Assembly: GCA_963764625.1 (NCBI GenBank)
Contig: CAVXTH010000009.1
Span: forward strand, 199,739 to 263,738
Length of the DNA stretch: 64,000 bases
Direction: 5' to 3'
Source: Candidatus Krumholzibacteriota bacterium
GTDB lineage: Bacteria > Krumholzibacteriota > Krumholzibacteriia > JAJRXK01
The notes beneath the pieces are model-generated. The model made no database searches. It saw only the letters and a list, made by a program, of their open reading frames with translations, and was not told the origin of the DNA. Shown here in pieces: positions 2,395 to 46,291 of this stretch (position 1 is its first letter; each line of letters begins with the position of its first letter). The translations under genes were made by a program, and so were the position numbers.

Positions 2395-2395
2395 C

Positions 2396-2824
2396 CTAGG
2401 ACTCCAGCCATCGGGATGAATCAAGCTCGGGCGGAAGGGGGCAGCTCGAATAGGGAGAAAACCAGGAGTACCGGTGACGGGCCACGAAGGAATAGAGTTG
2501 GTCACGAAAGCATCGGGGAAAGACTCGTCCGAAGCGCAAGATTCTCCATACTCCTGACAGTTCGGCGAAGACGGCCAAGACCGCATCCGATCGGATCCTG
2601 GCTCGACCATCGACGATGACCACGATAGTATCCGTGGGTGGGGCGGGTGGATCAAGCTCGGAAAGCACTCGCCGCGCGGCCGCCGACTGCAGGGGAGCAA
2701 AGCGAAAGACCTCGCGCCGGTCGTGCCGAAGCACCCAGCGCACCCAACCGTTGCACAGGGCACACAGGCCGTCGTAAAGAATCAGTGGATCGCGCGGATG
2801 GGAGGAAGAGACCTCGCTCTTCAC
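2396..2824 (-). CDS. DUF393 / DCC-family thiol-disulfide oxidoreductase-like protein
   Basis: LILYDGLCALCNGWVRW motif; GTG 2824 overlaps the upstream TGA stop (GTGA), so start chosen there rather than ORF-track 2851. Confidence 0.65.
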   Translation of the reverse strand: MKSEVSSSHPRDPLILYDGLCALCNGWVRWVLRHDRREVFRFAPLQSAAARRVLSELDPPAPPTDTIVVIVDGRARIRSDAVLAVFAELSGVWRILRFGRVFPRCFRDQLYSFVARHRYSWFSPYSSCPLPPELDSSRWLES

Positions 2825-24987: not shown

Positions 24988-24990
24988 AGC

Positions 24991-26487: not shown

Positions 26488-26530
26488 ACTGTAACCGTGG
26501 GCGAATCGTCTGGGAAGGATGAGAGATCCC

Positions 26531-26989
26531 ATGAAATTTACGATGCAGGTGAACGGAGCGAAGCACACAGTGGACGTCCCCGCCGAGATGCCGTTGCTGT
26601 GGGTCTTGCGCGACGTGCTCGAGCTCACCGGAACCAGGTTCGGATGTGGTCAAGGGGACTGTGGCGCGTGCACGGTGCTGGTGGAGGGCCGGGCGCGGCG
26701 CTCCTGCATCACTTCGATCGACGAAGTCGCAAGCAAGAAGATCCTCACCATCGAGGGCTTGGCCGAAGAAACTCTCCATCCGCTGCAAGAGGCCTGGTTG
26801 GCCGAGCAGGTGTCCCAGTGCGGTGCCTGCCAATCCGGGATGATCCTCAGCGCTGTCGCTCTGCTCGAGGACGTTTCCGACCCCAGCGACGCGCAGATCG
26901 ACTCGAGACTGGGGGCGAATCTGTGTCGCTGTGGGACCTATCAACGCGTGCGCAGGGCGATTCACCGCGCCGCCGGGGTGAAGCGATGA
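26531..26989 (+). CDS. (2Fe-2S)-binding small subunit of a xanthine dehydrogenase-family molybdoenzyme (IorA/CoxS-like)
   Basis: Two 2Fe-2S motifs (CGQGDCGACTV and CGACQSGM...CRCGTY); start ATG 26531 chosen (ATG 26519 also possible). Confidence 0.85.
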   Translation: MKFTMQVNGAKHTVDVPAEMPLLWVLRDVLELTGTRFGCGQGDCGACTVLVEGRARRSCITSIDEVASKKILTIEGLAEETLHPLQEAWLAEQVSQCGACQSGMILSAVALLEDVSDPSDAQIDSRLGANLCRCGTYQRVRRAIHRAAGVKR

Positions 26990-32033: not shown

Positions 32034-33626
32034 TCAGCGCGCCCCCGGGCCCAGGACCAGGGGGGCGAGCCACCAGCACATCAGGGTCACCACCACCAGC
32101 CCCAGGGCATCCAGAATGAGCCCCAGTCGGGCCATCTGACGAATACTGATCCATCCGCTGCCGAAGACGATGGCGTTGGGTGGGGTGGCGACCGGCAGCA
32201 TGAAGGCGAGGGAGGAGGCCAGAGCCGCGGGCACCATCAAGAGGAGGGGAGGCGCGTCGATACTGCGCGCGACCTCTGCCAGAATGGGCATGAGGAGGAT
32301 GGCGGTGGCGGTATTGCTGGTCACTTCCGTGAGTGCCATGGCCAAGAGCGAGATCAGGGCGATGATCAAGGGAAGGGGCAGACTCTGCAAGCCGTGGAGA
32401 CCGCTGCCGAACCAGGTGGCCAGCCCGCTGTCCTGAAAGCCCTTTGCCAGGGCGAACCCGCCGCCGAAGAGGATGAGGATTCCCCAGGGCGAACGGGTTC
32501 GAATGCTCTCCCAGTCGAGCAGGGGAACCCGGCGGCCATCCTGGGGACGGTAGGCACGCAACGCGGTGAGCAGGATCCCCACCCCGATGGCCACCGTGGT
32601 GTCCTGCAGGTAGTCGGAGTGTGGGAAGAGCTGCGACCAGCCCGGCAAAGTGAGCGTGCCCAGGGGCAGGGGTTTGCGGGTGATCCAGAGGATCGCGGCG
32701 AGGAGGAAGCAGGAGAGAACGAGTCTCTCTCCGCTCGCCATCGGTCCGAGCTTCTCCTGTTCCCTTCGCAGGACCTCTCGTCCCACATCTTGGGATTCTC
32801 CACTGACCAGATTCCGCTGCGGGCCGAAGCGCATGAGGACGAAGTACGCCATGGCGAGCATCGCGATCGAGATGGGGACCCCCAAGAGCATCCAGCTTCC
32901 GAACGAAATCTCCGGAAGCTCGGGGAAGAGGGTCTTCACCTGTCCGACGAGCACGATGTTGGGCGGCGTGCCTACCAGGGTGGCGAGGCCCCCGACGCCA
33001 GCTCCGTAGGCCAGCGCCAACATGAGGGCTCCGCCCAGTTTCTCTTCGAACGGAGCATCCGCGTCGCCGAGCCCGTGGGCACGGGCGCTCTCTGCCAGGG
33101 TGCGAACCACTGCCATCGCAATGGGAAGGAGCATGACGGTGGTGGCGGTGTTGGAGATCCAGGCCGAGAGGAAGGCCGAGGTCAAGAGAAAGCCCAGCAC
33201 CAGACGCTGCGGCCGGGTGCCCACCCGCTGGACCAATCCCAACGCGATGCGCCGGTGCAGGTTCCAGCGTTCCATCGCGATCGCGATCATGAAGCCGCCC
33301 AGAAAGAGGAAGACCAGATGATCGCCGTAGTTCTGTGCCGTGGCTCGGCTCGAGAGGATTCCGAGCGCAGGGAAGAGCACCAGAGGCAGAAGCGCCGTCA
33401 CCGCCAGGGGGAGGGCCTCGCTGATCCACCAGAACGCCATGAGGACCGCGACGGCCAGGGTGTGCCATCCCTTGGACCCAAGTCCGGACGGTGGCGGCAA
33501 GAGAAGGAAGACGACGAGCAGCAGGACGCCGGAAACGAGGAAGATGAGATGCCGGTCCACCGCGTGACTCCGGCCAGGACCGGAGCCTGAATTCGATGCC
33601 GCGGAATCCGAATGGGGGACGTTCAT
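32034..33626 (-). CDS. DASS/SLC13-type anion permease (ArsB/NhaD superfamily)
   Basis: 530 aa, about 12 TM segments; duplicated GTPPN motifs (LVGTPPNIV, VATPPNAIV). Confidence 0.85.
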   Translation of the reverse strand: MNVPHSDSAASNSGSGPGRSHAVDRHLIFLVSGVLLLVVFLLLPPPSGLGSKGWHTLAVAVLMAFWWISEALPLAVTALLPLVLFPALGILSSRATAQNYGDHLVFLFLGGFMIAIAMERWNLHRRIALGLVQRVGTRPQRLVLGFLLTSAFLSAWISNTATTVMLLPIAMAVVRTLAESARAHGLGDADAPFEEKLGGALMLALAYGAGVGGLATLVGTPPNIVLVGQVKTLFPELPEISFGSWMLLGVPISIAMLAMAYFVLMRFGPQRNLVSGESQDVGREVLRREQEKLGPMASGERLVLSCFLLAAILWITRKPLPLGTLTLPGWSQLFPHSDYLQDTTVAIGVGILLTALRAYRPQDGRRVPLLDWESIRTRSPWGILILFGGGFALAKGFQDSGLATWFGSGLHGLQSLPLPLIIALISLLAMALTEVTSNTATAILLMPILAEVARSIDAPPLLLMVPAALASSLAFMLPVATPPNAIVFGSGWISIRQMARLGLILDALGLVVVTLMCWWLAPLVLGPGAR

Positions 33627-33881: not shown

Positions 33882-35255
33882 GTAAGACGTATGATCGCGG
33901 TGGAGGCGCCAATGGCGACCCAGGGAGTGCGAGTGGAACGCGGCCCGTCGCGATCTGCGCGAGTGGGACTACTCACGCCCTCGGGTTGGGGCAACCTGGG
34001 CGATGCGGCCATCCAGGACGCGGTCATTCAGGCCATCCGCCGCCACCAACCCGACGCGGAGATCTGCGTCTTTTCGCTCAATCCGGCCGACACTCGCATG
34101 CGACACGACATCGAGGCCGACCTGCTGTCGGGCTTCTCGGTGGTGCCCGGATACACCGTCGCGGTGGGCTGGAACGACGCGCCTCCGATGGAGTCGAACG
34201 GCGACTCTCCGGTTGCGCCAAAATCGGCACCGGCTGCGGCGAAACCGTCGCTGCCCCGCGCCATGCTCGCGAGACTCGGTCCCGGCGTGGAGGAAGTCCT
34301 GCGCCGCGTGTACTACGACCAGGCCTATTTGCGGCGGATGCGGCGCAAGCTGAAGGACTTCGACCTCGTCCTGGTTTCCGGAGGCGGGCAGGTGGACGCC
34401 GAATGGGGAGGCGCCTGGGGTCACCCGTGGACCCTGGCCAAGTGGTCTCTTCTGTGCCGCAGCGTTGGGATCCCGTTTCTCGTTCTCAGCGTGGGCGTTT
34501 GTACTCTAGACGATTTTTTCAGCCGGATCTTCGCGCGTATCGCGCTTCGCCAGGCCGACTTCGTCTGTTTTCGCGACCAGAACTCCCGCCGGCGCGCGCT
34601 CGAATTGCACCTGGTGGAGGACGCAACGGTGGAACCCGACCTGGCGTTCGCCTACGACGGCCTCGATCCGTCCCTCTGGAGTCGGGGGGAGAGCGCAGTG
34701 GTGGCGGTCGGGCCCATGGCCTGGTGCGACCCCAGCGTATGGCCACGGCGCGACGAAGTGGCCCACCTGCGATATATGGAGAATTTGAGCAGCTTCGTGG
34801 CAGGGCTCTTGCGAGAGGGAAATCGGGTGCTGCTGGTATCGAGCGACAACCCCGATATGCGGACGGTCGAGTGGATTGCCAGGAAGATCGGAGCCGATCA
34901 TCCGGAATTGCGCTCGGCTCTGGAAACGCCGCGGACCGGAACGGTTGATGAATTCTTGAAAGTAGTGAATCGTGCGGAGTCCATGGTCGCGAGCCGGCTC
35001 CATGGATTCCTTCTGGCGGCGGGGTTGGGGAAGCCAGTGCTTCCTCTGTCCTACGATCCCAAAGTCGATTCACTTGCTCGGGAGTTAGGTCTTTCCGCCT
35101 ATCGCGAGGACATCGCCGACTTCGATCCCGCGGGCTTACGGGAGACCTTTCGTCGGCTTCAGGGCGACGGCGACCGCTGTCGGGACAACTTGAAACACAC
35201 GGTCACCGCTTACCGGAATCGTCTGGAGCGGCTCTTCGCGGAGTCGTTGCGGTGA
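33882..35255 (+). CDS. Polysaccharide pyruvyl transferase family protein
   Basis: ORF 33612..35255 trimmed to ATG 33882; motif GWGNLGDAAIQDAVIQAI and C-terminal SRLHGFLLAAGLGKPV. Confidence 0.7.
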   Translation, partial: VRRMIAVEAPMATQGVRVERGPSRSARVGLLTPSGWGNLGDAAIQDAVIQAIRRHQPDAEICVFSLNPADTRMRHDIEADLLSGFSVVPGYTVAVGWNDAPPMESNGDSPVAPKSAPAAAKPSLPRAMLARLGPGVEEVLRRVYYDQAYLRRMRRKLKDFDLVLVSGGGQVDAEWGGAWGHPWTLAKWSLLCRSVGIPFLVLSVGVCTLDDFFSRIFARIALRQADFVCFRDQNSRRRALELHLVEDATVEPDLAFAYDGLDPSLWSRGESAVVAVGPMAWCDPSVWPRRDEVAHLRYMENLSSFVAGLLREGNRVLLVSSDNPDMRTVEWIARKIGADHPELRSALETPRTGTVDEFLKVVNRAESMVASRLHGFLLAAGLGKPVLPLSYDPKVDSLARELGLSAYREDIADFDPAGLRETFRRLQGDGDRCRDNLKHTVTAYRNRLERLFAESLR

Positions 35256-35279
35256 GTTCACGATCCGAAGGATGAATTG

Positions 35280-36065
35280 ATGCTCGAGCACCTGCGAGAA
35301 CTCTTCCGCTATCGGGAACTCTTGCGCAGCCTCACCTGGCGCGAGATCCGGGTCAAATACAAGCAGTCGATCATGGGCGTGCTGTGGGCCGTTTTCATGC
35401 CCATGATCGTGGTCTCGGCCGGGATTCTGGTAAAGTACGCCGCGGCGAGACTCTCCAACACGCCCTTCAACGCGGCCGCCATCGCCTCCATATCGATTCG
35501 CGCGGTGCCCTGGGCATTCTTCGTCTCGTCTCTGCGCTTTGCCACCGGGAGTCTCATTTCGAACACGAATCTCGTGACGCGTATCTACTTTCCCAAAGAG
35601 ATTTTTCCTTTGGCCGCGGTGCTCTCCCAGCTGTTGGACTTCGCGGTGGCCTCCGGGGTTCTCCTGGTGCTTCTGACCGTGGTGCAAGTAGGGGTTTCGG
35701 TGCACCTCTTGTGGGTTCCCGTGCTCATGCTGCTCCTCATCATTCTCGTGGCGGGACTGGGCGTGTTTCTCTCGGCCTCGGCCCTGTTCTTCAGAGATGT
35801 GAAATACCTCGTCGAGGTCGTTCTGACCTTTGCCATCTTCTTCACGCCCGTGTTCTACGAGGTGAGCTTGTTCGGGAAGTGGTCCAAAGTGCTCCTCCTC
35901 AATCCAGTGGCGCCGATTCTGGAGGGAATGGACGCGGTGATCGTGAAGCATCAGGAGCCGCAGCTGCTGTGGATTCTCTACAGCACGGTGTTGGCCCTGG
36001 TCATCCTCACCGGAGGATATTCCTTCTTCAAGCGATCCGAGCCGGCATTCGCCGAGAACATCTAG
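35280..36065 (+). CDS. ABC-2 type transporter permease (Wzm/TagG-like polysaccharide exporter)
   Basis: 6 TM segments; N-terminal WREIRVKYKQSIMGVLWAV; directly upstream of ATPase gene. Confidence 0.85.
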   Translation: MLEHLRELFRYRELLRSLTWREIRVKYKQSIMGVLWAVFMPMIVVSAGILVKYAAARLSNTPFNAAAIASISIRAVPWAFFVSSLRFATGSLISNTNLVTRIYFPKEIFPLAAVLSQLLDFAVASGVLLVLLTVVQVGVSVHLLWVPVLMLLLIILVAGLGVFLSASALFFRDVKYLVEVVLTFAIFFTPVFYEVSLFGKWSKVLLLNPVAPILEGMDAVIVKHQEPQLLWILYSTVLALVILTGGYSFFKRSEPAFAENI

Positions 36066-36074
36066 GAGAATGCG

Positions 36075-37277
36075 ATGAGCGAGATTGCCCTGAAGTTGGA
36101 TCACGTGAGCAAGAAATTCCGGCGCGGAGAAATCCATGACTCCCTCAGGGATCTCATTCCCGCATTGACCGGAAGCTTTCTCAAGGGAGGGACCGGACTG
36201 CAGAAGGAGGAGTTTTGGGCGCTCGACGACGTGTGCATGGAAGTGAAGAAGGGCGAAGCGTTCGGAATCATTGGTCCCAACGGCGCGGGGAAATCGACCA
36301 TCCTGAAGCTTTTGAGCGGAATCCTGGTGCCCACTCAAGGATCTCTGATCGTCAATGGAACCCTCTCCGCCCTGATCGAGGTGGGCGCCGGATTCCATCC
36401 CGACCTCACTGGTCGCGAGAACATCTATCTCAACGGGTCCATCTTGGGGATGAAGAAGAAGGAGATCGAGGCCAAGTTCGACGAAATCGTGGAGTTCTCG
36501 GGACTCGCGGGATTCCTGGACACTCCGGTGAAGCGATACTCGTCGGGCATGTACGCTCGTCTGGGATTTTCCGTAGCGGCGCACGTCGACCCCGATGTCC
36601 TGGTGGTCGACGAAGTGCTGAGCGTGGGCGACCTGGTGTTCCAACGCAAGTGCCTGCAGCGCATGAGCGAAGTCCTCAGCAGTGGAGTCACCGTGCTTTT
36701 CGTGTCGCACAGCCTGCGGGCGGTCGCCGAACTCTGCTCGAGAAGCATGTTGCTGGTCGGGGGAAAAGTTGCCGCGCTCGGTCCCTCCGACGGGGTCATT
36801 TCGGAGTATCTCGCGCAGGCGACGGGCGAGCGCCGCAAGAGCGATGGGCCGGTGGAAGTGCACTCGGTGCGGATATCTTCACCCAACGGTGACGGGGTCC
36901 ATTTCGTTTCGGGGGAAACCGTCGATGTGGAAGTCGAACTCCGCGCGCGCGAGTCCTGTCCGAGAGTGGCGGTCGTACTCGATTTGCTCGACGAGAGCCA
37001 ATACAACCTCTTCAATACTTCCACCGAGAGAATGGGCCACGCGCCAGTCGATCTCGAACCAGGGGAAGTCTACCGCTGCACCTTCCGTCTGGATCTCCAC
37101 CTCGCGCAAGGTACTTTCTATCTGGGAGCGCACGCTTACCGCTACGACGTGGAACACAACTACGACAGTCTGGTGCCGGCGCTCACCTTCTACGTGAGCT
37201 CGGGGATCGAAGTGCGAGGGGCAGTCAACTGCAATCCTCGACTCGTGGAACAAAAACGAGAAATAGGGAGCAGATAG
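36075..37277 (+). CDS. ABC transporter ATP-binding protein (Wzt/TagH-like) with C-terminal extension domain
   Basis: Walker A GPNGAGKST, signature YSSGMYARL, Walker B VLVVDE; about 150 aa C-terminal beta-rich extension. Confidence 0.9.
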   Translation: MSEIALKLDHVSKKFRRGEIHDSLRDLIPALTGSFLKGGTGLQKEEFWALDDVCMEVKKGEAFGIIGPNGAGKSTILKLLSGILVPTQGSLIVNGTLSALIEVGAGFHPDLTGRENIYLNGSILGMKKKEIEAKFDEIVEFSGLAGFLDTPVKRYSSGMYARLGFSVAAHVDPDVLVVDEVLSVGDLVFQRKCLQRMSEVLSSGVTVLFVSHSLRAVAELCSRSMLLVGGKVAALGPSDGVISEYLAQATGERRKSDGPVEVHSVRISSPNGDGVHFVSGETVDVEVELRARESCPRVAVVLDLLDESQYNLFNTSTERMGHAPVDLEPGEVYRCTFRLDLHLAQGTFYLGAHAYRYDVEHNYDSLVPALTFYVSSGIEVRGAVNCNPRLVEQKREIGSR

Positions 37278-37279
37278 GA

Positions 37280-38323
37280 ATGCGAATTCTGGTCACCGGT
37301 CACCGAGGGTACGTTGGTTCCGTTCTGGTTCCCCACCTTCAGAGCCTCGGTCACGAACTGAGCGGCATGGACATTGATCTCTACCGCAGGTGCAGCTACG
37401 GGAAGAATCCCATCGAGATTCCCGCAGTGGAAAAGGACATCCGCGATGCCGTCGCGGAGGATTTCACGGGGGTGGAGGCCGTCGTTCATCTGGCCGCCCT
37501 CTCCAACGATCCCCTCGGCGATCTCAACCCACAGCTGACCTGGGCCATCAACCACGAAGGTGCGGCCCGAGTGGCGAGAGAGGCGCGCAAGGCCGGGGTC
37601 AAGCGCTTCGTCATGGCTTCCACTTGCAGCAATTACGGAGCGGGAGACGATCGACCGGTCAAAGAGGACGCTCCCCTGCATCCGCTGACTCCCTACTCGC
37701 AGTCGAAAGTGAAAGCCGAGCAAGAAATCACCCTGCTCGCAACCGAAGAGTTCACGCCGACCTTTCTCCGCTTCGCGACGGCTTACGGAGTCTCGCCTCG
37801 GCTGCGCTTCGACATCGTTCTGAACAACCTCTCGGCCTGGGCCTACACTACCGGCAAGGTGCATCTCAAGAGCGACGGATCTCCGTGGCGCCCTCTCATC
37901 CATGTGGAGGACATGGCGCGCGCGTTCGGTGCGGTTCTCGCAGCGCCCTGCGATACGATTCGTGGAGAGGCCTTCAACGTGGCTCCTCCGGGGGAAAACT
38001 ACCGGATCCGTCAGCTGGCGGAGATCGTCAAGGAAGCGCGCCCCGGGTGCGAATTGGAATTGGCGGAAGGGGCTTCCGCGGACGCTCGCAACTACCAGGT
38101 GGACGTGAGCAAGATTCAGGAGCGCATTCCGGCCTTCAAACCCGTGTGGAACGCGACCAAGGGAGCGCGACAGCTGCTCGACGCCTACACGAGCAATGGG
38201 CTCGAGCTCGAGGAATTCGAAGGTCCGACCTACAACCGCATCGATCACGTTCGAATGCTGCTTAGGGAGGGTTACCTGACCACCGACTTGCGCTGGACGG
38301 GGAAGTCCGGCCCGAGTGATTGA
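37280..38323 (+). CDS. NAD-dependent epimerase/dehydratase (extended SDR family)
   Basis: Rossmann motif VTGHRGYVGS; catalytic YSQSK. Confidence 0.85.
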   Translation: MRILVTGHRGYVGSVLVPHLQSLGHELSGMDIDLYRRCSYGKNPIEIPAVEKDIRDAVAEDFTGVEAVVHLAALSNDPLGDLNPQLTWAINHEGAARVAREARKAGVKRFVMASTCSNYGAGDDRPVKEDAPLHPLTPYSQSKVKAEQEITLLATEEFTPTFLRFATAYGVSPRLRFDIVLNNLSAWAYTTGKVHLKSDGSPWRPLIHVEDMARAFGAVLAAPCDTIRGEAFNVAPPGENYRIRQLAEIVKEARPGCELELAEGASADARNYQVDVSKIQERIPAFKPVWNATKGARQLLDAYTSNGLELEEFEGPTYNRIDHVRMLLREGYLTTDLRWTGKSGPSD

Positions 38324-38333
38324 GGAGAGAACC

Positions 38334-39587
38334 GTGAGCGAGAAGAATACGACCGCCCCGGCGTCCGTCTGTCGATCATGCGGCGAGCCGCTCGGCGAAA
38401 TCTTCGTCGATTTGGGCATGTCTCCGCCCTGCGAGAGCTATCTCGCGGCGGATGAGATCCATTCGATGGAACCGTTCTATCCACTCGTGGTGTACGTCTG
38501 CGACAAGTGCTGGTTGGTGCAGCTCGAGGAGGTCGTGGCCCCGGGCGACATCTTCCGCGACTACGCCTATTTTTCGGCCTACTCCACTTCCTGGGTGGAG
38601 CACGCGCGGCGTTACACCGAGCAGATGATCGAGCGCCTCGGCTTGACCCGAGACAGTTTCGTGGTGGAAGTCGCCAGCAACGACGGCTATCTGCTCCAGC
38701 ATTTCGTCCAGAAGGGCATTCCCTGCCTCGGAGTCGATCCCGCCGAGAACGTGGCGGTGGAGGCGGCGGAAAGGGGAGTGGAAACGCTCACCGAGTTCTT
38801 CGGCAGCGAGTTCGCGGAGGAATTGGTGAAGGACCGGGGGAAGGCCGATCTCATCGTGGGGAACAACGTGTTGGCGCAGGTTCACGAAGTCAATGACTTC
38901 GTGGAGGGCATGCGGGTGCTCCTCGCCGAGGGAGGTACCATCACCCTGGAGTTTCCCCATCTTTTGCAGCTGATGGAGCAGAATCAGTACGACACGATCT
39001 ACCACGAACATTATTCCTACTTCTCGCTTCTGGCGGTGGAGAGGATTTTCAGCGCCCACGGATTGCGCACCTGCCACATCGAGGAACTGAGCACGCACGG
39101 GGGATCGCTGAGGGTCCACGCGTGCCACGAGGACGATCCCCGTCCAGAGGACAAGAGCGTGGCGGCGATCCGCGAGCAGGAAGCGAAGGCCGGACTGAAC
39201 GGCCTGGTGGCCTATCGCGAATTCCAGGAGAGAGTGCACGCGCAGAAACGCGATCTCCTCGAGTTCCTCATCGAGGCCCGCCGCGCCGGCAAGCGAGTGG
39301 CGGGATACGGCGCGCCGGGCAAGGGCAATACCCTGCTCAACTACTGCGGGGTTCGCGGGGACTTTCTCGAGTTCACCGTCGACCGAAACCCCCACAAGCA
39401 GGGAAAGTTCCTGCCGGGAACCCACATTCCGATTCTGCCTCCGGAAGCCATCGCGCAGCGAAAACCAGACTATCTGTTCATCCTTCCCTGGAACCTGAAG
39501 GACGAAATCATGGAGCAGAACGCATTCATCCGCGAGTGGGGCGGATCGTTCGTGGTTCCCATTCCCAAGGTCGAGGTTATCCCATGA
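38334..39587 (+). CDS. C-methyltransferase family protein with N-terminal Zn-ribbon (nucleotide-sugar C-methyltransferase-like)
   Basis: GTG 38334 after GGAGA; CRSCG...CDKC zinc ribbon, methyltransferase core (VEVASNDGYLL), C-terminal C-MT domain. Confidence 0.75.
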   Translation: MSEKNTTAPASVCRSCGEPLGEIFVDLGMSPPCESYLAADEIHSMEPFYPLVVYVCDKCWLVQLEEVVAPGDIFRDYAYFSAYSTSWVEHARRYTEQMIERLGLTRDSFVVEVASNDGYLLQHFVQKGIPCLGVDPAENVAVEAAERGVETLTEFFGSEFAEELVKDRGKADLIVGNNVLAQVHEVNDFVEGMRVLLAEGGTITLEFPHLLQLMEQNQYDTIYHEHYSYFSLLAVERIFSAHGLRTCHIEELSTHGGSLRVHACHEDDPRPEDKSVAAIREQEAKAGLNGLVAYREFQERVHAQKRDLLEFLIEARRAGKRVAGYGAPGKGNTLLNYCGVRGDFLEFTVDRNPHKQGKFLPGTHIPILPPEAIAQRKPDYLFILPWNLKDEIMEQNAFIREWGGSFVVPIPKVEVIP

Positions 39588-40132
39588 CCTTCCATCCCAC
39601 GGAAATCGAAGGCGCCTACACTATCGAAGTCGAGAAACTCGTGGATGAGCGGGGCTTCTTTGCGCGTTCGTTTTGCCGGGAGGAATTTCAAGAGCATGGC
39701 CTGGATCCCTTGATCGATCAGTGCAATATTTCGGGAAATCTGAAGCGTGGCACCTTCCGCGGTCTTCACGCCCAGCTCCCGCCTCACCAGGAAAACAAGC
39801 TGGTTCGTTGCGAGAAGGGAGCGCTCTACGATATCTGTCTCGACCTCAGGCCCGATTCGCCCAGCTACCTGCGGCATTTCGGCATCGAGCTGAGCGGGGA
39901 AAACCGCCGCATGCTCTACATCCCCAAGGGGTGTTACCACGGCTTCATCACCCTGGCCGATGATACGGTGGTGTTCTATCAGCTCTCCCACGGGTACGCG
40001 CCAAAGCACGCGCGAGGGGTGAGATGGAACGATCCGGTGTTCAAAATCGAGCTTCCCATCGAAATCGAAGTGATCAACGAGCGGGACGCAAACTATCCCG
40101 ACTACCAGCCGGTGGAAAAGGGCCGATCATGA
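39584..40132 (+). CDS. NDP-4-dehydro-6-deoxyhexose 3,5-epimerase (RmlC-like cupin)
   Basis: ATG 39584 overlaps upstream stop (ATGA); RmlC motifs DERGFF, RGLHAQ, KLVRC, YIPKGCYHGF. Confidence 0.85.
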   Translation: MTFHPTEIEGAYTIEVEKLVDERGFFARSFCREEFQEHGLDPLIDQCNISGNLKRGTFRGLHAQLPPHQENKLVRCEKGALYDICLDLRPDSPSYLRHFGIELSGENRRMLYIPKGCYHGFITLADDTVVFYQLSHGYAPKHARGVRWNDPVFKIELPIEIEVINERDANYPDYQPVEKGRS

Positions 40133-41448
40133 ACGACGCGAGACTCATGCATTGGTCGCTCGTTCAGCGAGAGAGCGAAGGCCGAGCGATGCACGAGCTC
40201 GCGACGGAACTCTATCCCCTGGCCCGGTCCATCACCGGGGACGGTCTGCGCGCCACTCTGAATCGACTGGGCGAAGGTCTGCCGTTTCATCTTCACGAGG
40301 TGAAGACCGGAACGCCGATTCTGGACTGGACGGTTCCCAAGGAGTGGAACTGTAGGGAGGCCTGGATCAAGGGACCTGATGGCGAGATCGTCGTCGACTA
40401 CGCGCGGTCCAATCTGCATCTCATGGGATACAGCACGCCGCTGCACGAGCGCATGCCTTTGGAGCGGCTCCAGAAGCATCTGTATTCGCTACCCGAACAA
40501 CCCGACTCTATTCCCTGGAAGACCTCCTACTACCAGGAGAATTGGGGGTTTTCCCTGCCGCATCGTGAGCGGGAGAAGCTCGTCGAGGGAGAGTATGAGG
40601 TCTTCATCGATGCAAGCCTGAAGGAGGGGAGCCTCAGCTACGGGGAAATTGTCTTGCCGGGACGCAGGGAAGAGGAAATCCTCATTTCTGCCCACGCCTG
40701 CCATCCCTCTCTCGCGAACGACAATCTCTCAGGGCTGGTGGTCACCCGGGCCCTGGCTTGGCACCTGGCCGAACGGCCGCGGCGTTTCACCTATCGCTTT
40801 GTCTACGCGCCGGGAACCGTGGGGGCCATCGCCTGGATCGCGCGCAACCAGGAGTTGCTCGGACTCATCCGGGGCGGGTTGATCGTGGCGGGAGTGGGTG
40901 ACCAGGGCGGATTTACCTACAAGCGCAGTCGCGCCGGTAGCGCCGAATTGGATCGAATCGTGACCAGGATCCTCCACGAATCCGGGGAGGATCACCAAAT
41001 CGTCGACTTCAGCCCGGACGGCTACGACGAACGCCAGTACAACTCTCCCGGGGTTGGTCTGCCGGTGGGTCGTCTGTCGCGCACCCCCTGGGGAAGCTAT
41101 CCCCAGTACCACACCTCTGGCGACGATCTTGCGTTTCTTTGCGGGGAGAGTCTGGCGGGTTCGCTCGAGGTTCTGTTGCGGGTTTGCGGCGAGCTGGAGG
41201 ACAATACCTACTACCGGAACTTGCTACCGGTGGGAGAGCCTCAGTTGGGTCGAAGAGGCCTGTACACGGTTCTGGGCGGGCATCGGGGCAAGAGCGAGCG
41301 CGAGTCCGCCATGCTCTGGCTCTTGAATTTTTCCGATGGGGCTCATTCGTTGAGAGATCTCGAGGAGCTCTCGGGGCACAAGAGCAGCCTCTTGGCCGAG
41401 ATGGCCAAAGTGCTCGAGGAACACGAGCTACTCCGTAGGGAGGATTGA
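40129..41448 (+). CDS. Aminopeptidase-like (M28 fold) domain protein, DUF4910-type
   Basis: ATG 40129 overlaps upstream stop (ATGA); metal-ligand-like motifs HACHPSLANDNLSG, DGYDERQ, YHTSGDD. Confidence 0.55.
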   Translation: MNDARLMHWSLVQRESEGRAMHELATELYPLARSITGDGLRATLNRLGEGLPFHLHEVKTGTPILDWTVPKEWNCREAWIKGPDGEIVVDYARSNLHLMGYSTPLHERMPLERLQKHLYSLPEQPDSIPWKTSYYQENWGFSLPHREREKLVEGEYEVFIDASLKEGSLSYGEIVLPGRREEEILISAHACHPSLANDNLSGLVVTRALAWHLAERPRRFTYRFVYAPGTVGAIAWIARNQELLGLIRGGLIVAGVGDQGGFTYKRSRAGSAELDRIVTRILHESGEDHQIVDFSPDGYDERQYNSPGVGLPVGRLSRTPWGSYPQYHTSGDDLAFLCGESLAGSLEVLLRVCGELEDNTYYRNLLPVGEPQLGRRGLYTVLGGHRGKSERESAMLWLLNFSDGAHSLRDLEELSGHKSSLLAEMAKVLEEHELLRRED

Positions 41449-41449
41449 C

Positions 41450-42766
41450 ATGAGCGGTGATCGTTACACACGTTCCCGAGACTTCAGCCAACGAGCGCAC
41501 GGAGTCATCCCCGGAGGATGCCACACCTACGCCAAGGGCGACGACCAGTATCCCGAGCAGGCGCCGGGAATGATCGAGAAGGGCAGCGGCTGCCACGTGT
41601 GGGATGTCGACGGGAACGAATTCATCGAATACGGCATGGGTCTGAGGGCGGTCACCCTGGGTCACGCCTACCCGGAAGTGGTGGATGCGGTGCGCAAGCA
41701 GATCGAAAAGGGCACCAACTTCTCGCGTCCCTCTCGCCTCGAGGTGGAGTGCGCCGAATCGCTGCTCGACATTCTGCCCGGCGCGGAGATGGCGAAATTC
41801 TGTAAGGACGGCTCGACCACGACCGCGGCGGCCCTTCGCCTGGCGCGAGCACACACGGGTCGCGAGAAGATCGCATATTGCCAAGACCATCCCTTCTTTT
41901 CCTACGAAGATTGGTTCATGGGCACGACCGAATTGAATGCGGGCATTCCCCAGGCGATTTCACGTCTCAGCCTGCCCTTTTCGTACAACGACGCTGAGAG
42001 CGTAGAGCGCCTCTTCGCGGAGAACGAGGGCCAGATCGCCGCGCTCATCATGGAGGCGGAAAGGGAGACGCCCCCGCGGGACGAGTTTCTCGCGCGCACC
42101 CAAGAGCTCTGCCGGAAGAACGGAACCCTATTCGTGCTCGACGAGATGATCACCGGATTCCGTTGGGATCTGCGCGGAGCCCAGAAGGTCTACGGCCTGC
42201 AGCCGGACCTCTCGTGCTTCGGCAAGGCGATGTCCAACGGCTTTGCTCTTTCGGCGCTGGTGGGAAAGCGTGAGGTCATGGAGCTGGGGGGCTACGGCCA
42301 CGATCGGGACCGGGTCTTTCTGCTCTCCACCACGCACGGCGCGGAAACCCACGCCCTAGCGGCTGGCCTGGCGGTGATGAAGGTCTATCGCCGCGAAGAC
42401 GTCGTTGGAACTCTTCATCGTCAGGGAGAGAGACTGCGACTTGGGGTCGAGGAAGTCGTGAATCGAATGGGGATCGGCGATCATTTCGGAGTCGGAGGGC
42501 GCGACTGCAACCTCGTCTACATCACCAAGGACGAGAAGGGAAACCGCTCGCAGAAGTTCCGCACTCTCTTCATGCAGGAGATCATCAAACGGGGGATCTT
42601 GGGTCCGTCCTTCGTCATCTCGTATTCGCACAGCGACGCCGACATCGATCGAACGGTCGAGGCGGTGGCCGGCGCGCTGGAAGTCTATGCCAAAGCCCTC
42701 ACCGACGGGGTGGACCGATACCTGCAAGGCAGGCCGGTGAAGCCGGTGGATCGACGGCGTGGTTGA
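41450..42766 (+). CDS. Class III PLP-dependent aminotransferase (glutamate-1-semialdehyde aminomutase-like)
   Basis: GGGAGG SD; motifs DEMITGFRW and PLP-lysine region FGKAMSNG. Confidence 0.85.
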   Translation: MSGDRYTRSRDFSQRAHGVIPGGCHTYAKGDDQYPEQAPGMIEKGSGCHVWDVDGNEFIEYGMGLRAVTLGHAYPEVVDAVRKQIEKGTNFSRPSRLEVECAESLLDILPGAEMAKFCKDGSTTTAAALRLARAHTGREKIAYCQDHPFFSYEDWFMGTTELNAGIPQAISRLSLPFSYNDAESVERLFAENEGQIAALIMEAERETPPRDEFLARTQELCRKNGTLFVLDEMITGFRWDLRGAQKVYGLQPDLSCFGKAMSNGFALSALVGKREVMELGGYGHDRDRVFLLSTTHGAETHALAAGLAVMKVYRREDVVGTLHRQGERLRLGVEEVVNRMGIGDHFGVGGRDCNLVYITKDEKGNRSQKFRTLFMQEIIKRGILGPSFVISYSHSDADIDRTVEAVAGALEVYAKALTDGVDRYLQGRPVKPVDRRRG

Positions 42767-42819
42767 GGTAGACGGATCGCACCGACGACCGAGCTCGAGC
42801 GAAGCAGAGGAATGAGATC

Positions 42820-43617
42820 ATGAAAGTTGTCTTGTTTTGTGGTGGATTGGGATTGCGTCTTCGCGATTACTCCGAAGACTTGCCCAAGCCGATGGTGAGA
42901 GTAGGGAAGCACCCGATTCTGTGGCAGGTGATGCGCTATTATGCCCACTTTGGCCACAAAGATTTTATCTTGTGTCTGGGCTACAAAGGGGAAGTCATCA
43001 AGGACTATTTCCTGAACTACGAGGAGTGCATGTCCAACGACTTCATCCTCTCCGACGGTGGCCGGCGCATCGAGCTCTTCAATCAGGATGTCGAGGACTG
43101 GACCATCACCTTCGTCGATACGGGTATCGAAGCCAGCATCGGGGAGCGACTGAAGGCGGTGCAGCCGCACTTGAAGGGCGAGGATGTCTTCCTGGCCAAC
43201 TACACCGATGGCCTGACCGACCTCGATCTGAACCAGTATCTGGATTTCGCCACGGAACAGGACAAGATCGCAACGTTCTTGTCGGTGCGACCCACCGCCA
43301 GCTTCCACGTGGTCGAATCCGATCCCGACGGAAGCGTCACCAGGATTTCGCCAGTCGATGAGGCGACACGAATCAATTGTGGCTATTTCGTGTTGAAGCA
43401 GCAGATTTTCGACGAAATGCGCGAGGGAGACGACCTGGTCACGGCGCCGTTCCAGCGCCTCATCGCGAAGCAGCAACTGGCGACCTTCAACCACGAGGGA
43501 TTCTGGGAGTGCATGGATACTTTCAAGGATCGCCAGATGCTGGAGACCATGGTGCGCGCGGGAGACAAGCCCTGGCAGGTGTGGGCCAAGAACCGCACTC
43601 CTTCTGGCCCGCGTTGA
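42820..43617 (+). CDS. rfbF: Glucose-1-phosphate cytidylyltransferase
   Basis: N-terminal nucleotidyltransferase motif VLFCGGLGLRLRDYSEDLPKPMV; 265 aa typical length; visibly lower GC than neighbours. Confidence 0.85.
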   Translation: MKVVLFCGGLGLRLRDYSEDLPKPMVRVGKHPILWQVMRYYAHFGHKDFILCLGYKGEVIKDYFLNYEECMSNDFILSDGGRRIELFNQDVEDWTITFVDTGIEASIGERLKAVQPHLKGEDVFLANYTDGLTDLDLNQYLDFATEQDKIATFLSVRPTASFHVVESDPDGSVTRISPVDEATRINCGYFVLKQQIFDEMREGDDLVTAPFQRLIAKQQLATFNHEGFWECMDTFKDRQMLETMVRAGDKPWQVWAKNRTPSGPR

Positions 43618-43630
43618 AACGAGGTGGCGG

Positions 43631-44284
43631 ATGATGAATCTCGGCTTGGGCAAAGGAGCGCTGAAGGTCCTGTGTCTGGGGGCGCACCCCGACGACATCG
43701 AAATCGGTTGCGGGGGCACACTTCTGGAAATGCTCGGACAGGGGCGAGAAATTCATCTCCGCTGGGTCGTGTTCGCCGCCGGGGGCGCCCGTCGCGCCGA
43801 GGCGCGTGCGGGCGCGGAGACCTTTGGAAAGAAAGCCTCCTCGCTGCAGACCGTTTTTCACGAATTCGAGGACGGCTTCCTTCCCTACGAGGGCGAAGCG
43901 GTGAAGCGAAGGTTCGAGGAGCTGAAGAACGGCGCCAATCCGGATCTCATCCTCACCCATTGGAGCGGTGATCTGCACCAGGATCATCGCCTGGTGAACG
44001 AACTCTGCCTCAACACCTTCCGCGACCACCTCATCCTCGAGTTCGAGATTCCCAAGTACGACGGCGACCTGGGGAGACCCAACTTCTACCTACCGCTCAG
44101 CCGTGCCAGCATGCAGGCCAAAGTCGATGGGCTAAAGAGCTGCTTTCCTTCTCAGAGCAAGAAGGATTGGTTCGATGAGGAGCTCTTTCGCGGGCTGGCG
44201 AGAATTCGCGGAATGGAATGCCGCGCCAAGGATGGTTACGCGGAAGCCTTCTATCTGCGCAAAGCCCGGCTCTCTTTCTCCTAG
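43631..44284 (+). CDS. PIG-L/LmbE family deacetylase
   Basis: Zn-binding motif GAHPDDIEIGCGGT and HxxH region (DLHQDHRL). Confidence 0.85.
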   Translation: MMNLGLGKGALKVLCLGAHPDDIEIGCGGTLLEMLGQGREIHLRWVVFAAGGARRAEARAGAETFGKKASSLQTVFHEFEDGFLPYEGEAVKRRFEELKNGANPDLILTHWSGDLHQDHRLVNELCLNTFRDHLILEFEIPKYDGDLGRPNFYLPLSRASMQAKVDGLKSCFPSQSKKDWFDEELFRGLARIRGMECRAKDGYAEAFYLRKARLSFS

Positions 44285-44314
44285 AAAGAAGGCGGATCTC
44301 CCGGACGCATGGGG

Positions 44315-46291
44315 CTAGGCCGTTTCGTTGCGCGAACGATGCTCCTCGATGAGGTGCTTCACCACATCCGGATCGGCCAGAGTGGAGATGTCCCCCAATC
44401 CGTCATACTGCGAGGATGCGATCTTCCGCAGCAGGCGCCGCATGATCTTACCGCTTCGTGTCTTGGGTAAACCGCTCGCGATGTGAATCACGTCGGGCGC
44501 CGCGAAGCCTCCGATCGCATGACGAACTTGTTCACGAAGCGCGCCGCTGATGTCATCCACCCCCACCTTGCTCTCACCGGCGGACAGCACCACGTAGGCG
44601 TAGATCCCGGTGCCCTTGATCTCATGCGGGACTCCCACCACCGCCGCTTCCGCGACCAGATCGTGCGCAATCAAGGCGCTTTCGATTTCAGCGGTTCCGA
44701 GACGGTGACCCGAGACGTTGAGTACGTCGTCGATCCTTCCCGTGATCCAATAGTCACCGTCTTCGTCACGCGTGCATCCATCGCCGGTGAAGTAGTAGCC
44801 AGGGTACTGTGTGAAATAGGTTTGCTTGAAGCGCTGGTGATCGCCCCACACGGTACGGGCTTGCCCCGGCCAGGGAGTCGCCAGGCATAGCGCTCCTTTG
44901 ACCCCGTCGCCCTCCAGAACGGTGCCCTTCTCCGGATCGAGAATGATGGGCTTGATGCCGAAAAACGGCAGCATGGCGGCGCCGGGCTTGGTGGGGGTGA
45001 CCCCGGGCAGCGGCGTGATGAGGATCCCCCCCGTCTCGGTTTGCCACCAGGTATCCACTACCGCACAGCAACCTCTCCCCACCACGTCGTGATACCACTT
45101 CCAGATCTCGGGATTGATGGGTTCGCCCACCGTGCCCAGGATGCGCAAGCTCTTCAGCTCGTACTTCTTGACCCACTCGTCTCCAGCTCTTGCGATGGCG
45201 CGAAGCGCGGTGGGCGCGGTATAGAAGATCGTGATCCCCAGGTCCTGGACCATGCGCCAGTAACGCCCGGGATCGGGATGGTTGGGAGTCGATTCGAACA
45301 GCACCGTGGTGGCGCCGTTGGCCAAAGGACCGTAGAGGATGTACGAGTGTCCGGTGATCCAACCGATGTCGGCAGCGCAGCAATAGACGTCTTCCGGATG
45401 ATAGTCGAACACGTATTTGTGCGTAACCGCCGCGTAGACCATGTACCCGCCAGTCGTGTGGAGCACGCCCTTGGGCTGACCGGTGCTGCCCGAAGTGTAG
45501 AGAATGAAGAGCGGGTCCTCCGCGCCCATCCACTCCACGGTACAGGTGGCACGTTGCTTATGGGACTCCTCGTCGAGCCAGAGATCGCGGCCCACCGTCA
45601 TGGGGGTCTGTGACTCGGTTCGTCTGGCGACCAGAACCGTCTTCACGAAGTCCATCCCTTCGACGGCCCGGTCGCAGATCTGTTTCAAGGGGATGCGTTT
45701 GCCTCCGCGCAGGCCCTCGTTGGCGGTGATGACTATCTGAGCCCTCGCGTCCACGATGCGATCGCGCAGTGCTTCGGCGCTGAAGCCTCCGAAAACCACT
45801 GAATGCACTGCGCCGATGCGCGCACATGCCAGCATTGAGAAGGCCAGCTCCGGAATCATCGGCATGTACATGCAGACGCGATCGCCCTTCTTCACCCCGT
45901 GGGCCTTCAACACGTTTGCGATACGACACACCTCGTGCTTCAACTCGCGGTAGGTGATGTGTCGATAGGTGCCCGCCTCGTCGCTGGCCCAGATGAGAGC
46001 GGTCTTGTCGCCCTTCTCGGCCAAATGCCGGTCGACGCAATTGTAGCAGGCATTCAGACGGCCGCCGGAGAACCAGGCGAAATCGACCTCGTCGTAATCG
46101 GCGTCGAACACGGTGTTCCAGGGGTGAAACCACTCGAGCGTCTTGGCCTGTTCGGACCAGAACCACTGCGGGTTGTCCAACGAAAGTCGATAGAGTCGTT
46201 CGTACTCTTCCATGCTCTGGATGTGGGCAGATTTCCGAATGTGATCTTTTACGGGGTAGATCTCTGGCACCTCGACCTCCTGAACTCGCAT
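44315..46291 (-). CDS. acs: Acetyl-coenzyme A synthetase (AMP-forming)
   Basis: 658 aa; AMP-binding motifs YTSGSTGQPKG, WWQTETGG, C-terminal GLPKTRSGKIMRRLLRKI. Confidence 0.95.
   Translation of the reverse strand: MRVQEVEVPEIYPVKDHIRKSAHIQSMEEYERLYRLSLDNPQWFWSEQAKTLEWFHPWNTVFDADYDEVDFAWFSGGRLNACYNCVDRHLAEKGDKTALIWASDEAGTYRHITYRELKHEVCRIANVLKAHGVKKGDRVCMYMPMIPELAFSMLACARIGAVHSVVFGGFSAEALRDRIVDARAQIVITANEGLRGGKRIPLKQICDRAVEGMDFVKTVLVARRTESQTPMTVGRDLWLDEESHKQRATCTVEWMGAEDPLFILYTSGSTGQPKGVLHTTGGYMVYAAVTHKYVFDYHPEDVYCCAADIGWITGHSYILYGPLANGATTVLFESTPNHPDPGRYWRMVQDLGITIFYTAPTALRAIARAGDEWVKKYELKSLRILGTVGEPINPEIWKWYHDVVGRGCCAVVDTWWQTETGGILITPLPGVTPTKPGAAMLPFFGIKPIILDPEKGTVLEGDGVKGALCLATPWPGQARTVWGDHQRFKQTYFTQYPGYYFTGDGCTRDEDGDYWITGRIDDVLNVSGHRLGTAEIESALIAHDLVAEAAVVGVPHEIKGTGIYAYVVLSAGESKVGVDDISGALREQVRHAIGGFAAPDVIHIASGLPKTRSGKIMRRLLRKIASSQYDGLGDISTLADPDVVKHLIEEHRSRNETA

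Follow-up and report, generated by a model that had tools for sequence, protein, structure and literature searches.

The structure of CA_C2195 (PDB 3k9t), a DUF4910 protein, was described together with the linkage of its family to sugar genes, exporters and pyruvyl transferases (Das et al., 2014; PMC4000134). The supplement to that paper gives this set of genes for Streptomyces ipomoeae, for an island on chromosome II of Brucella, and for Haliscomenobacter, Chroococcidiopsis and Kuenenia; the paper's general conclusion, a modified surface carbohydrate, is the same as ours. For the Brucella island, the literature offered only annotation and reverse transcription PCR data, and no glycan. The sole functional datum for the DUF4910 family is genetic: Cj1295, a member of it, is required for 5-N-(2,3-di-O-methylglyceroyl) pseudaminic acid on Campylobacter flagellin (Hitchen et al., 2010; PMC3068675). 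In the capsular heptose pathway of Campylobacter jejuni, Cj1427 is an alpha-ketoglutarate-recycled C4-dehydrogenase that yields a 4-keto sugar without dehydration and acts before RmlC-type epimerases (PMC10680097). Here we compare with these systems a ten-gene operon containing a DUF4910 gene, found in a stretch of 64,000 nucleotides from a Candidatus Krumholzibacteriota genome (contig CAVXTH010000009.1; the whole stretch is referred to hereafter as the window).

The region is one operon, in which a DUF4910-centred sugar-tailoring cassette is joined to a Wzm/Wzt ATP-binding cassette (ABC) exporter and a pyruvyl transferase. An initial annotation had judged the gene set not to be a textbook pathway. 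That is true, but the gene association was already published in 2014 (PMC4000134), and the window copy adds an example to it rather than a system of a new kind. New here are the analysis of two apparent front ends, a short-chain dehydrogenase/reductase (SDR) predicted not to be a dehydratase, the coupling of a nucleotidyltransferase paralogue to a PIG-L deacetylase, and the probable lineage-specific loss of a GT2 glycosyltransferase. On balance, we favour as product a nucleoside diphosphate (NDP)-linked 3-C-methyl amino-hexose, placed on a Wzm/Wzt-exported and possibly pyruvylated glycan by transferases that would be encoded elsewhere.

Results

A ten-gene operon conserved among Krumholzibacteriota

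Codon-usage-guided gene calling and the listing of open reading frames (ORFs) place ten close-packed, co-directional genes on the + strand at approximately 33.9–44.3 kb (Table 1). All ten ORFs are intact, with intergenic spacing of -8 to +53 nt. The two ATGA stop/start overlaps that the initial annotation reported were confirmed in the sequence at 39584-39587 and 40129-40132, and the GTG start of the methyltransferase gene overlaps the SDR stop by 8 nt. Domain labels were assigned by Pfam and NCBIfam profile searches, with NCBIfam equivalog cut-offs used for family membership; every label first given to the ten genes was matched in these searches, and the description of a ten-gene, co-directional, tightly packed cluster was likewise correct. 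The start proposed for the cluster, position 33882, was not, being a GTA codon. Candidate starts for the pyruvyl transferase gene are GTG 33879, ATG 33891 and ATG 33912, the last with GGAGG 5 nt upstream; the operon most likely begins at ATG 33891, or at ATG 33912 with GGAGG as its Shine-Dalgarno sequence.

Table 1. Genes of the sugar operon, its flanks and the glycosyltransferases found elsewhere in the window.
Feature	Position	Strand	Domains and remarks
SLC13 permease	32034-33626	-	Flanks operon upstream, divergent
Polysaccharide pyruvyl transferase (CsaB/WcaK-like)	33891/33912-35255	+	PF04230 (PS_pyruv_trans), 100.7 bits, full model
Wzm-type ABC-2 permease	35277-36065	+	PF01061 (ABC2_membrane)
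Wzt-type ABC ATPase with C-terminal Wzt_C	36075-37277	+	PF00005 (ABC_tran), PF14524
Extended SDR (NAD epimerase/dehydratase)	37280-38323	+	PF01370
NDP-4-keto-sugar 3-C-methyltransferase (TylC3/TcaB9/MtmC family), predicted	38316-39587	+	PF08421, PF13489, PF08484 (Methyltransf_13/23/14)
RmlC-like cupin 3,5- (or mono-) epimerase	39584-40132	+	PF00908 (dTDP_sugar_isom), 190 bits; ATGA overlap with methyltransferase
CA_C2195-type protein (DUF4910 M28-like, DUF2172 insert, HTH_47)	40129-41448	+	PF16254, PF09940, PF16221; ATGA overlap with epimerase
Class-III (glutamate-1-semialdehyde aminomutase-like) pyridoxal phosphate aminotransferase, PRK06209 subfamily	41450-42766	+	Aminotran_3; NF004856, 707 bits
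RfbF-like sugar-1-phosphate nucleotidyltransferase, paralogue clade ('CytT-prime')	42820-43617	+	NTP_transferase; TIGR02623, 227.4 bits
PIG-L/LmbE-family Zn-dependent de-N-acetylase	43631-44284	+	PF02585, 63 bits
Acetyl-CoA synthetase	44315-46291	-	Flanks operon downstream, convergent
TMEM260-like/DUF2723 GT-C-fold protein with long C-terminal tetratricopeptide repeat array	49538-52177	+	Outside operon, convergent with GT2
GT2 glycosyltransferase	52185-53186	-	PF00535; outside operon

The best genomic match was a Candidatus Krumholzibacteriota metagenome-assembled genome (locus L004), in which the ten proteins are 76–93% identical to those of the window and are encoded in identical order, with both flanks shared as well. 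This gene order is found in four related loci belonging to three distinct genomes, so that the check on synteny proposed by the initial annotation found the order kept in Krumholzibacteriota relatives. The gene arrangement is far from chance, because the same order occurs in these four loci and the core co-occurs in most of 80 DUF4910-anchored loci (see below). In the more distant Krumholzibacteriota-type loci (L001/L006, L002/L003/L005 and L016), the order is kept with an extra GT2 gene between wzt and the SDR gene. This GT2, of the soluble HpsE/EpsD/MftF type, is thus found in three Krumholzibacteriota-type relatives and is missing from the window and from L004; in the window, only 2 nt separate the end of wzt from the SDR start, and tblastn with the relatives' in-cluster GT2 revealed no orthologue or relocated copy in the 64 kb. 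By parsimony, the gene was probably lost along the lineage shared by the window and L004, its absence being lineage specific and not a property of the system.

The loss of a gene kept by three relatives would also be expected if the operon were a decaying remnant without function. Such decay is barely credible in view of the ten intact ORFs and of a glycosyltransferase-less layout common to two diverged genomes with conserved flanks. In comparison with L004, moreover, the ratio of non-synonymous to synonymous substitution rates (dN/dS) is 0.03–0.14 for all ten genes, at dS of ~0.65–1.5. Strong purifying selection therefore acts on all ten genes, and the operon is judged functional.

The relatives also carry additional genes. 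In L001 (14080-15533) and L002 (14186-15522), an Exo_endo_phos gene and a META-domain or small gene are located between the PIG-L gene and the next conserved genes. An Exo_endo_phos gene is present elsewhere in the window, at 727-1386.

Distribution of the cassette

All ORFs of 81 DUF4910-anchored loci were clustered (77 non-redundant fetched loci, three duplicates dropped, the window included). The C-methyltransferase was found in 65 of the 81 loci, the RfbF-like nucleotidyltransferase in 64, RmlC in 62, PIG-L in 48 and the SDR in 46. The class-III aminotransferase was present in 28, Wzm and Wzt in 16 and 15, respectively, and the pyruvyl transferase in 11. DUF4910 homologues number at least ~8,000 at E <= 1e-20 and are 53–97% identical among the matches listed. 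The cassette occurs in at least 10 phyla, including Krumholzibacteriota, Myxococcota, Bacteroidota, Chloroflexota, Cyanobacteria, Acidobacteriota, Verrucomicrobiota, Planctomycetota, Nitrospirota and Actinomycetota. Recurrent neighbours in other phyla are initiating phosphoglycosyltransferases, WecG/TagA, GT2s, FemAB-like acyltransferases, AsnB, short-chain dehydrogenases and CDP-glucose-dehydratase-like genes (CDP, cytidine diphosphate); the cassette is therefore part of classical glycan loci there.

C-methyltransferase, epimerase and SDR

The methyltransferase matches MtmC (4rv9) from end to end (residues 13-423; E = 1.4e-90), as it does KijD1 (1e-71) and TcaB9 (2e-66). The N-terminal Cys4 Zn ribbon (CxxC...CxxC) is aligned, and the Y-x-E-H motif reads IYHEHYS in the window, IYDEHFF in TcaB9 and IYHEHLS in MtmC. 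This motif corresponds to the active-site Tyr222/Glu224/His225 of TcaB9; at the position of TcaB9 His181, the window enzyme has Gln. That the protein is a genuine sugar 3-C-methyltransferase of the TylC3/TcaB9/MtmC type is well supported by these alignments, in agreement with its first description as a Zn-ribbon C-methyltransferase. The cupin encoded by the next gene scored 146.5 bits against TIGR01221, slightly below the 155.75 cut-off, and matched RmlC structures at E = 1e-35, which, with the PF00908 match, bears out its assignment as an RmlC-like 3,5-epimerase. The methyltransferase family, the RmlC-like partner and the syntenic relatives together uphold the proposal of a nucleotide-sugar cluster that makes a branched, C-methylated sugar.

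The SDR is predicted to be an NDP-sugar C4 oxidoreductase and not a 4,6-dehydratase. Its motif S-T-C-S-N-Y-G, accompanied by Y-S-Q-S-K, is conserved across all cassette SDRs, with S-[ST]-C-S-x-Y-G in all 46, whereas the RmlB-like and RfbG-like genes present in some of the same loci specify STDEVYG or T(S)DKCYE. The 4,6-dehydratase acid/base pair beside the catalytic Ser/Thr (T-D-E, S-x-E or T/S-D-K) is thus missing. The score against the CDP_4_6_dhtase model TIGR02622 was 37.5 bits, compared with a cut-off of 278, and the closest solved relatives were 6vo6 and 6vo8 (112 bits). No 4,6-dehydratase or RfbG-like gene was found in the operon or among the annotated ORFs of the window. The initial annotation had predicted a deoxysugar; with no 4,6-dehydratase, and with S-T-C-S-N-Y-G in the SDR in place of TDE or T(S)DK, this part of the prediction is not supported.

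Two apparent front ends

The nucleotidyltransferase aligns with RfbF (1tzf; E = 1e-53) and is 39% identical to the Salmonella enzyme, but its score lies below the RfbF equivalog cut-off of 300.25 bits (Table 1). Its loop reads G-G-L-G-L-R-L, as compared with G-G-L-G-T-R-L in RfbF. Cassette nucleotidyltransferases form two clades, one canonical (46–73% identical to RfbF) and often encoded next to dehydratase-like genes, the other, to which the window enzyme belongs, 32–40% identical. A PIG-L gene is adjacent in 41 of 47 cases in the window's clade and in 0 of 17 in the canonical clade (Fisher p = 7e-11, for loci that are not phylogenetically independent). Because the paralogue clade is almost always followed by PIG-L, its association hints at an N-acetylhexosamine-type substrate (2-acetamido or 2-amino hexose) rather than glucose. 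We found no literature on CDP-N-acetylglucosamine or CDP-glucosamine as a pathway intermediate. In the simplest reading of these clades, two interchangeable front ends, one being canonical RfbF with or without a dehydratase and the other the RfbF paralogue with PIG-L, would feed one methyltransferase-RmlC-DUF4910 core. The designation of the window enzyme as a glucose-1-phosphate cytidylyltransferase, and of the sugar as built on CDP-glucose, has become doubtful, given 227 against 300 bits and a separate, PIG-L-coupled clade.

These data bear on whether the product could be a CDP-activated, C-methylated, aminated 6-deoxyhexose derived from CDP-glucose, as in the cereose, TylC3 and NovU-type routes. 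The nucleotidyltransferase is, after all, clearly homologous to RfbF, 4-keto-6-deoxy sugars are the usual substrates of the methyltransferase family, and some phyla pair the methyltransferase-RmlC-DUF4910 trio with canonical RfbF and a CDP-glucose-4,6-dehydratase-like gene; a dehydratase could also be encoded outside the 64 kb. Nevertheless, the lack of a 4,6-dehydratase in the operon and annotated window, of the acid/base pair in the operon SDR, and of an RfbF-level score in a nucleotidyltransferase from a PIG-L-coupled clade make such a product rather unlikely here.

One locus of the canonical type may bear on a glycan that has been studied. A Candidatus Kuenenia sp. locus (L072, 1684-10300) encodes canonical RfbF, a CDP-glucose-dehydratase-like protein, the C-methyltransferase, RmlC, DUF4910 and Wzm/Wzt. 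The S-layer O-glycan of Kuenenia contains an unidentified residue of 174 Da, described as a "dimethyl-deoxyhexose" (PMC5088730). A 3-C-methyl, O-methyl 6-deoxyhexose would fit this residue.

PIG-L deacetylase and aminotransferase

The translation of the last gene contains the metal-binding motifs GAHPDDIEIG (AHPDD) and DLHQDH (HxDH), which, together with PF02585, confirm a PIG-L deacetylase. Its score against BshB1 was 51 bits, below the cut-off, and weak matches were obtained to diacetylchitobiose deacetylase, LnmX and BcZBP.

The aminotransferase passes the PRK06209 model NF004856 (707 bits; cut-off 486), which bears the name of glutamate-1-semialdehyde aminomutase (GSAM), and fails both HemL equivalogs (TIGR00713, 225 against 527; NF009055, 186 against 637). 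It is thus a class-III, GSAM-like enzyme, as annotated, and, on these scores, not HemL. Solved relatives are GSAMs (1e-51), aminopentol aminotransferase, D-phenylglycine aminotransferase and an aminoglycoside C-6' aminotransferase (1e-29). Given the genes that surround it here and in the glycan loci of Brucella and Legionella, we read PRK06209 as a polysaccharide-associated subfamily. Since the gene is present in only about one-third of the loci, it probably provides an accessory step whose place in the route is uncertain.

The DUF4910 protein

The DUF4910 protein scored 325 bits against PF16254, 122 bits against PF09940 and 72 bits against PF16221, the C-terminal HTH_47, and matches CA_C2195 (3k9t) over residues 13-435 at E = 1e-124, in agreement with its annotation as an M28-fold, DUF4910-type protein. 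Zn ligands His192/Asp198/His328 correspond to His189/Asp195/His324 of CA_C2195, and Ser194 and Pro228 (Ser191 and Pro225 in CA_C2195) replace the catalytic Asp/Glu of M28 peptidases. Because the single-Zn ligands and these Ser/Pro replacements are both conserved, the protein is a typical member of the CA_C2195/PIRSF015244 family, as judged from its sequence. We predict that it is a single-Zn sugar-modifying enzyme.

On the model of Cj1295, the cassette might instead remodel the N-acyl groups of an amino sugar or nonulosonic acid that is already present, without building an NDP-hexose anew. Acyl groups would then be removed or exchanged by PIG-L and DUF4910, with the class-III aminotransferase producing the acyl or amino-acid substituent. 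Consistent with this, Cj1295 is required for 5-N-(di-O-methylglyceroyl) pseudaminic acid, the O-antigen loci of Legionella serogroups 6/12 join a GSAM-like aminotransferase, a 'putative aminopeptidase' and Pse/NeuB genes, and genes of the FemAB-like and AsnB types are recurrent neighbours of the cassette. However, NeuB/PseI, acyl carrier protein (ACP), FkbH and acyl-activating genes are absent from the operon and the annotated window, and DUF4910 is most tightly associated across phyla with the C-methyltransferase and RmlC, enzymes of NDP-4-keto-sugars. We consider N-acyl remodelling unlikely.

Exporter, pyruvyl transferase and candidate glycosyltransferases

Wzm is 93% identical to its L004 counterpart and scored 51 bits against NF050109 (galactan Wzm/RfbD). 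The Wzt ATPase scored 168–202 bits against TagH and Wzt/RfbE models. Its Wzt_C domain (PF14524; 52.7 bits, residues 253-377), which binds glycan termini, suggests an exporter that recognises capped chain ends. The pyruvyl transferase scored 84 bits against TIGR03609 CsaB, under the cut-off, and shares 80% amino acid identity with that of L004 (dN/dS 0.14). Matches to PF01061, PF00005, PF14524 and PF04230 accordingly agree with the annotated Wzm/Wzt-type exporter and pyruvyl transferase. The statement that the cluster contains no glycosyltransferase also held, none being encoded among its ten genes.

This last observation would be accounted for if the product were not a polymer but a small glycoside or aminoglycoside-like metabolite, exported by the ABC-2 pump in the manner of DrrAB. 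The ATPase matches DrrA at 127 bits, and the GSAM-like aminotransferase and LmbE-type deacetylase would find their place, class-III aminotransferases and PIG-L deacetylases being hallmarks of aminoglycoside pathways. A metabolite of this kind is, however, very improbable: a polysaccharide pyruvyl transferase is encoded and the ATPase bears Wzt_C, cyclitol and aglycone genes are lacking, the GT2 is part of the operon in sister genomes, and in other phyla the cassette stands beside initiating transferases and WecG in classical glycan loci.

Across the 64 kb, glycosyltransferases are limited to the GT-C and GT2 proteins downstream of the operon (Table 1). A GT2 45% identical to the latter is encoded directly upstream of wzm in L016, and in L005 one that is 58% identical lies ~5.5 kb downstream of the cluster. 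The window GT2 may be a cognate transferase of the sugar operon, although this is a weak lead. An Arn-like route, in which a GT2 loads undecaprenyl phosphate, deacetylation takes place on the lipid and flipping is followed by GT-C transfer, was considered and rejected: the relatives' in-cluster GT2 is of the soluble type, scored 25 bits against ArnC (cut-off 529) and is unrelated to the GT2 at 52185. As a separate observation, the GT-C and GT2 proteins of the window resemble a periplasmic protein- or glycan-glycosylation pair.

Flanking sequence and other features of the window

The PIG-L stop is separated by 30 nt (44285-44314) from the convergent acetyl-CoA synthetase gene. Apart from the GT-C and GT2 genes, the rest of the 64 kb encodes housekeeping and regulatory functions unrelated to the operon. 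A scan of the sequence returned 0 promoters and terminator-like sites no more frequent than in shuffled sequence, with consensus patterns that may not suit this phylum. An Rfam scan of the whole window revealed no RNA family. A horizontally acquired island is not supported, the GC content of the cluster (0.60–0.62) being close to that of the flanks and both flanks being syntenic with L004.

At 46478-47521 and 47518-48546 (+ strand), a gene for a Peptidase_Mx-like Zn-peptidase is translationally coupled to one for a D-Ala-D-Ala-ligase-like ATP-grasp protein. All close relatives (also L001, L004 and L005) keep this pair directly downstream of the sugar operon, and it may serve peptide ligation or the cell wall; a second Ddl-like ORF is located at 1411-2763 (- strand). 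Overlapping ORFs at 26497-28263 and 28151-29164 (+ strand) both match MoCoBD_1/2 molybdopterin-cofactor-binding domains and follow genes for a Mo-bisPGD oxidoreductase and a 4Fe-4S/DmsC-like protein (22978-26487); a frameshift or an assembly error may have divided what is one gene. Two paralogous sulfatases in tandem (7224-8702 and 8816-10225, + strand), whose C-terminal domains are of the SGSH_C (N-sulphoglucosamine sulphohydrolase-like) type, suggest the use of sulfated glycans. Two signalling genes, for an FHA-GAF-SpoIIE (PP2C) phosphatase (55188-56813, - strand) and for a Ser/Thr kinase with fused PD40/beta-propeller repeats (4466-7141, + strand), have no evident link to the operon.

Discussion

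A route to a branched amino-hexose can be proposed from the analyses above; we infer from them the substrate identities, the order of steps, the nucleotide, the aminated position and the role of DUF4910. The RfbF-paralogue nucleotidyltransferase would activate a hexose-1-phosphate, probably of a 2-acetamido or 2-amino hexose, as an NDP-sugar (probably a CDP-sugar), and PIG-L would expose the 2-amine at a stage that we leave unspecified. The SDR would oxidise C4 in the manner of Cj1427, without 4,6-dehydration and with the 6-hydroxyl kept. The TylC3/MtmC-type enzyme would then methylate C3 of the 4-keto intermediate, and the RmlC-like cupin would epimerise C3 and/or C5. The 4-keto group might be transaminated by the class-III aminotransferase or re-reduced; it is even conceivable, as speculation, that alpha-ketoglutarate released by the transaminase re-oxidises the Cj1427-like SDR. 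The CA_C2195-type Zn protein would most plausibly form or break an amide bond on the sugar amino group. Finally, glycosyltransferases encoded elsewhere would attach the branched amino-hexose to a lipid-linked, perhaps pyruvylated glycan for export by Wzm/Wzt.

Several observations weigh against this route. All substrate assignments of the cassette enzymes are by analogy. The SDR is only ~31–33% identical to 6vo6, a structure that we take to be Cj1427 and that bears the PDB name 'putative sugar-nucleotide epimerase/dehydratase', and no second reductase is encoded in the operon. Activity on NDP-4-keto sugars is not known among class-III aminotransferases; the sugar precedents among the solved relatives are aldehyde or C6' aminations in aminoglycosides, and the gene is missing from about two-thirds of the cassette loci. 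DUF4910 also occurs in loci that have canonical RfbF and lack PIG-L or the class-III aminotransferase, so its role does not depend strictly on an amine exposed by PIG-L. As the loci are phylogenetically dependent, support for the coupling of nucleotidyltransferase and PIG-L is weaker than the Fisher p-value would indicate. The operon encodes no glycosyltransferase, polymerase, initiating transferase or chain terminator that would point to an acceptor glycan.

A bolder version of the proposal would make the product a member of an undescribed sugar class, an NDP- (CDP-) linked 2-amino-3-C-methyl-hexose with its 6-hydroxyl. It would call for three unprecedented steps: the action of an RfbF paralogue on a hexosamine-type 1-phosphate, with PIG-L working at the nucleotide-sugar level; the action of a class-III aminotransferase on an NDP-keto-sugar; and a new tailoring reaction by the peptidase-fold, single-Zn DUF4910 protein. 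We hold this version to be doubtful. If true, it would define a major unrecognised component of surface glycans in thousands of environmental genomes.

The cassette is found in pathogens (Brucella, Campylobacter and Legionella relatives) and in the ecologically important Acidobacteriota, cyanobacteria and anammox bacteria. Its solution would annotate thousands of genomes and could reveal the enzymology of DUF4910 and of PRK06209 aminotransferases. The compact ten-gene version, with no glycosyltransferase, is a convenient minimal set for reconstitution in vitro, for which the front-end and PIG-L-coupling results provide concrete substrate hypotheses.

The C. jejuni capsular heptose pathway (Cj1427 C4-dehydrogenase, Cj1430 C3/C5-epimerase and Cj1428 C4-reductase; PMC10680097) follows the same logic, oxidation of C4 without dehydration followed by an RmlC-type cupin. 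It differs in using guanosine diphosphate (GDP)-heptoses, in lacking C-methylation, aminotransferase, PIG-L and DUF4910, and in having a dedicated C4-reductase, for which the window operon has no counterpart. In the Cj1295 flagellin locus (PMC3068675), a protein of the same family as the window DUF4910 protein serves an N-acyl variant of a surface sugar, but that locus contains pseudaminic acid, ACP and FabH genes and has no C-methyltransferase, RmlC or nucleotidyltransferase-PIG-L pair.

As regards export, Wzm/Wzt systems for O-polysaccharide and S-layer glycans, in which Wzt has a C-terminal carbohydrate-binding domain, share with the window the ABC-2 permease and Wzt_C ATPase. Unlike them, the window exporter has no adjacent polymerising glycosyltransferases, chain terminator or initiating transferase. 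The TylC3, TcaB9, KijD1 and MtmC pathways of actinomycete antibiotics have a methyltransferase homologous over its full length, with the catalytic motif kept and with an RmlC-type epimerase as partner. These routes, however, start from a 4,6-dehydratase, give 6-deoxy products, use DegT-type aminotransferases and lack DUF4910 and PIG-L. The CDP-cereose route of Bacillus cereus is a branched-sugar 3-C-methyltransferase route of the same kind.

The closest likeness is to the CA_C2195/DUF4910 neighbourhood (PMC4000134; PIRSF015244, 'polysaccharide biosynthesis protein with aminopeptidase-like domain'), which has the same anchor architecture, the same Zn site and the same co-directional setting of sugar genes. 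Shared genes encode the C-methyltransferase, RmlC-type epimerase, NDP-sugar epimerase/dehydratase, sugar-phosphate nucleotidyltransferase, a deacetylase of the N-acetylglucosaminyl-phosphatidylinositol type, GSAM-like aminotransferase, pyruvyl transferase and exporters. The window copy differs in being Krumholzibacteriota-like, with a Wzm/Wzt exporter and no internal glycosyltransferase. Two alternative front ends are apparently not spelled out in that publication, and it is here that the present comparison extends the neighbourhood described in 2014.

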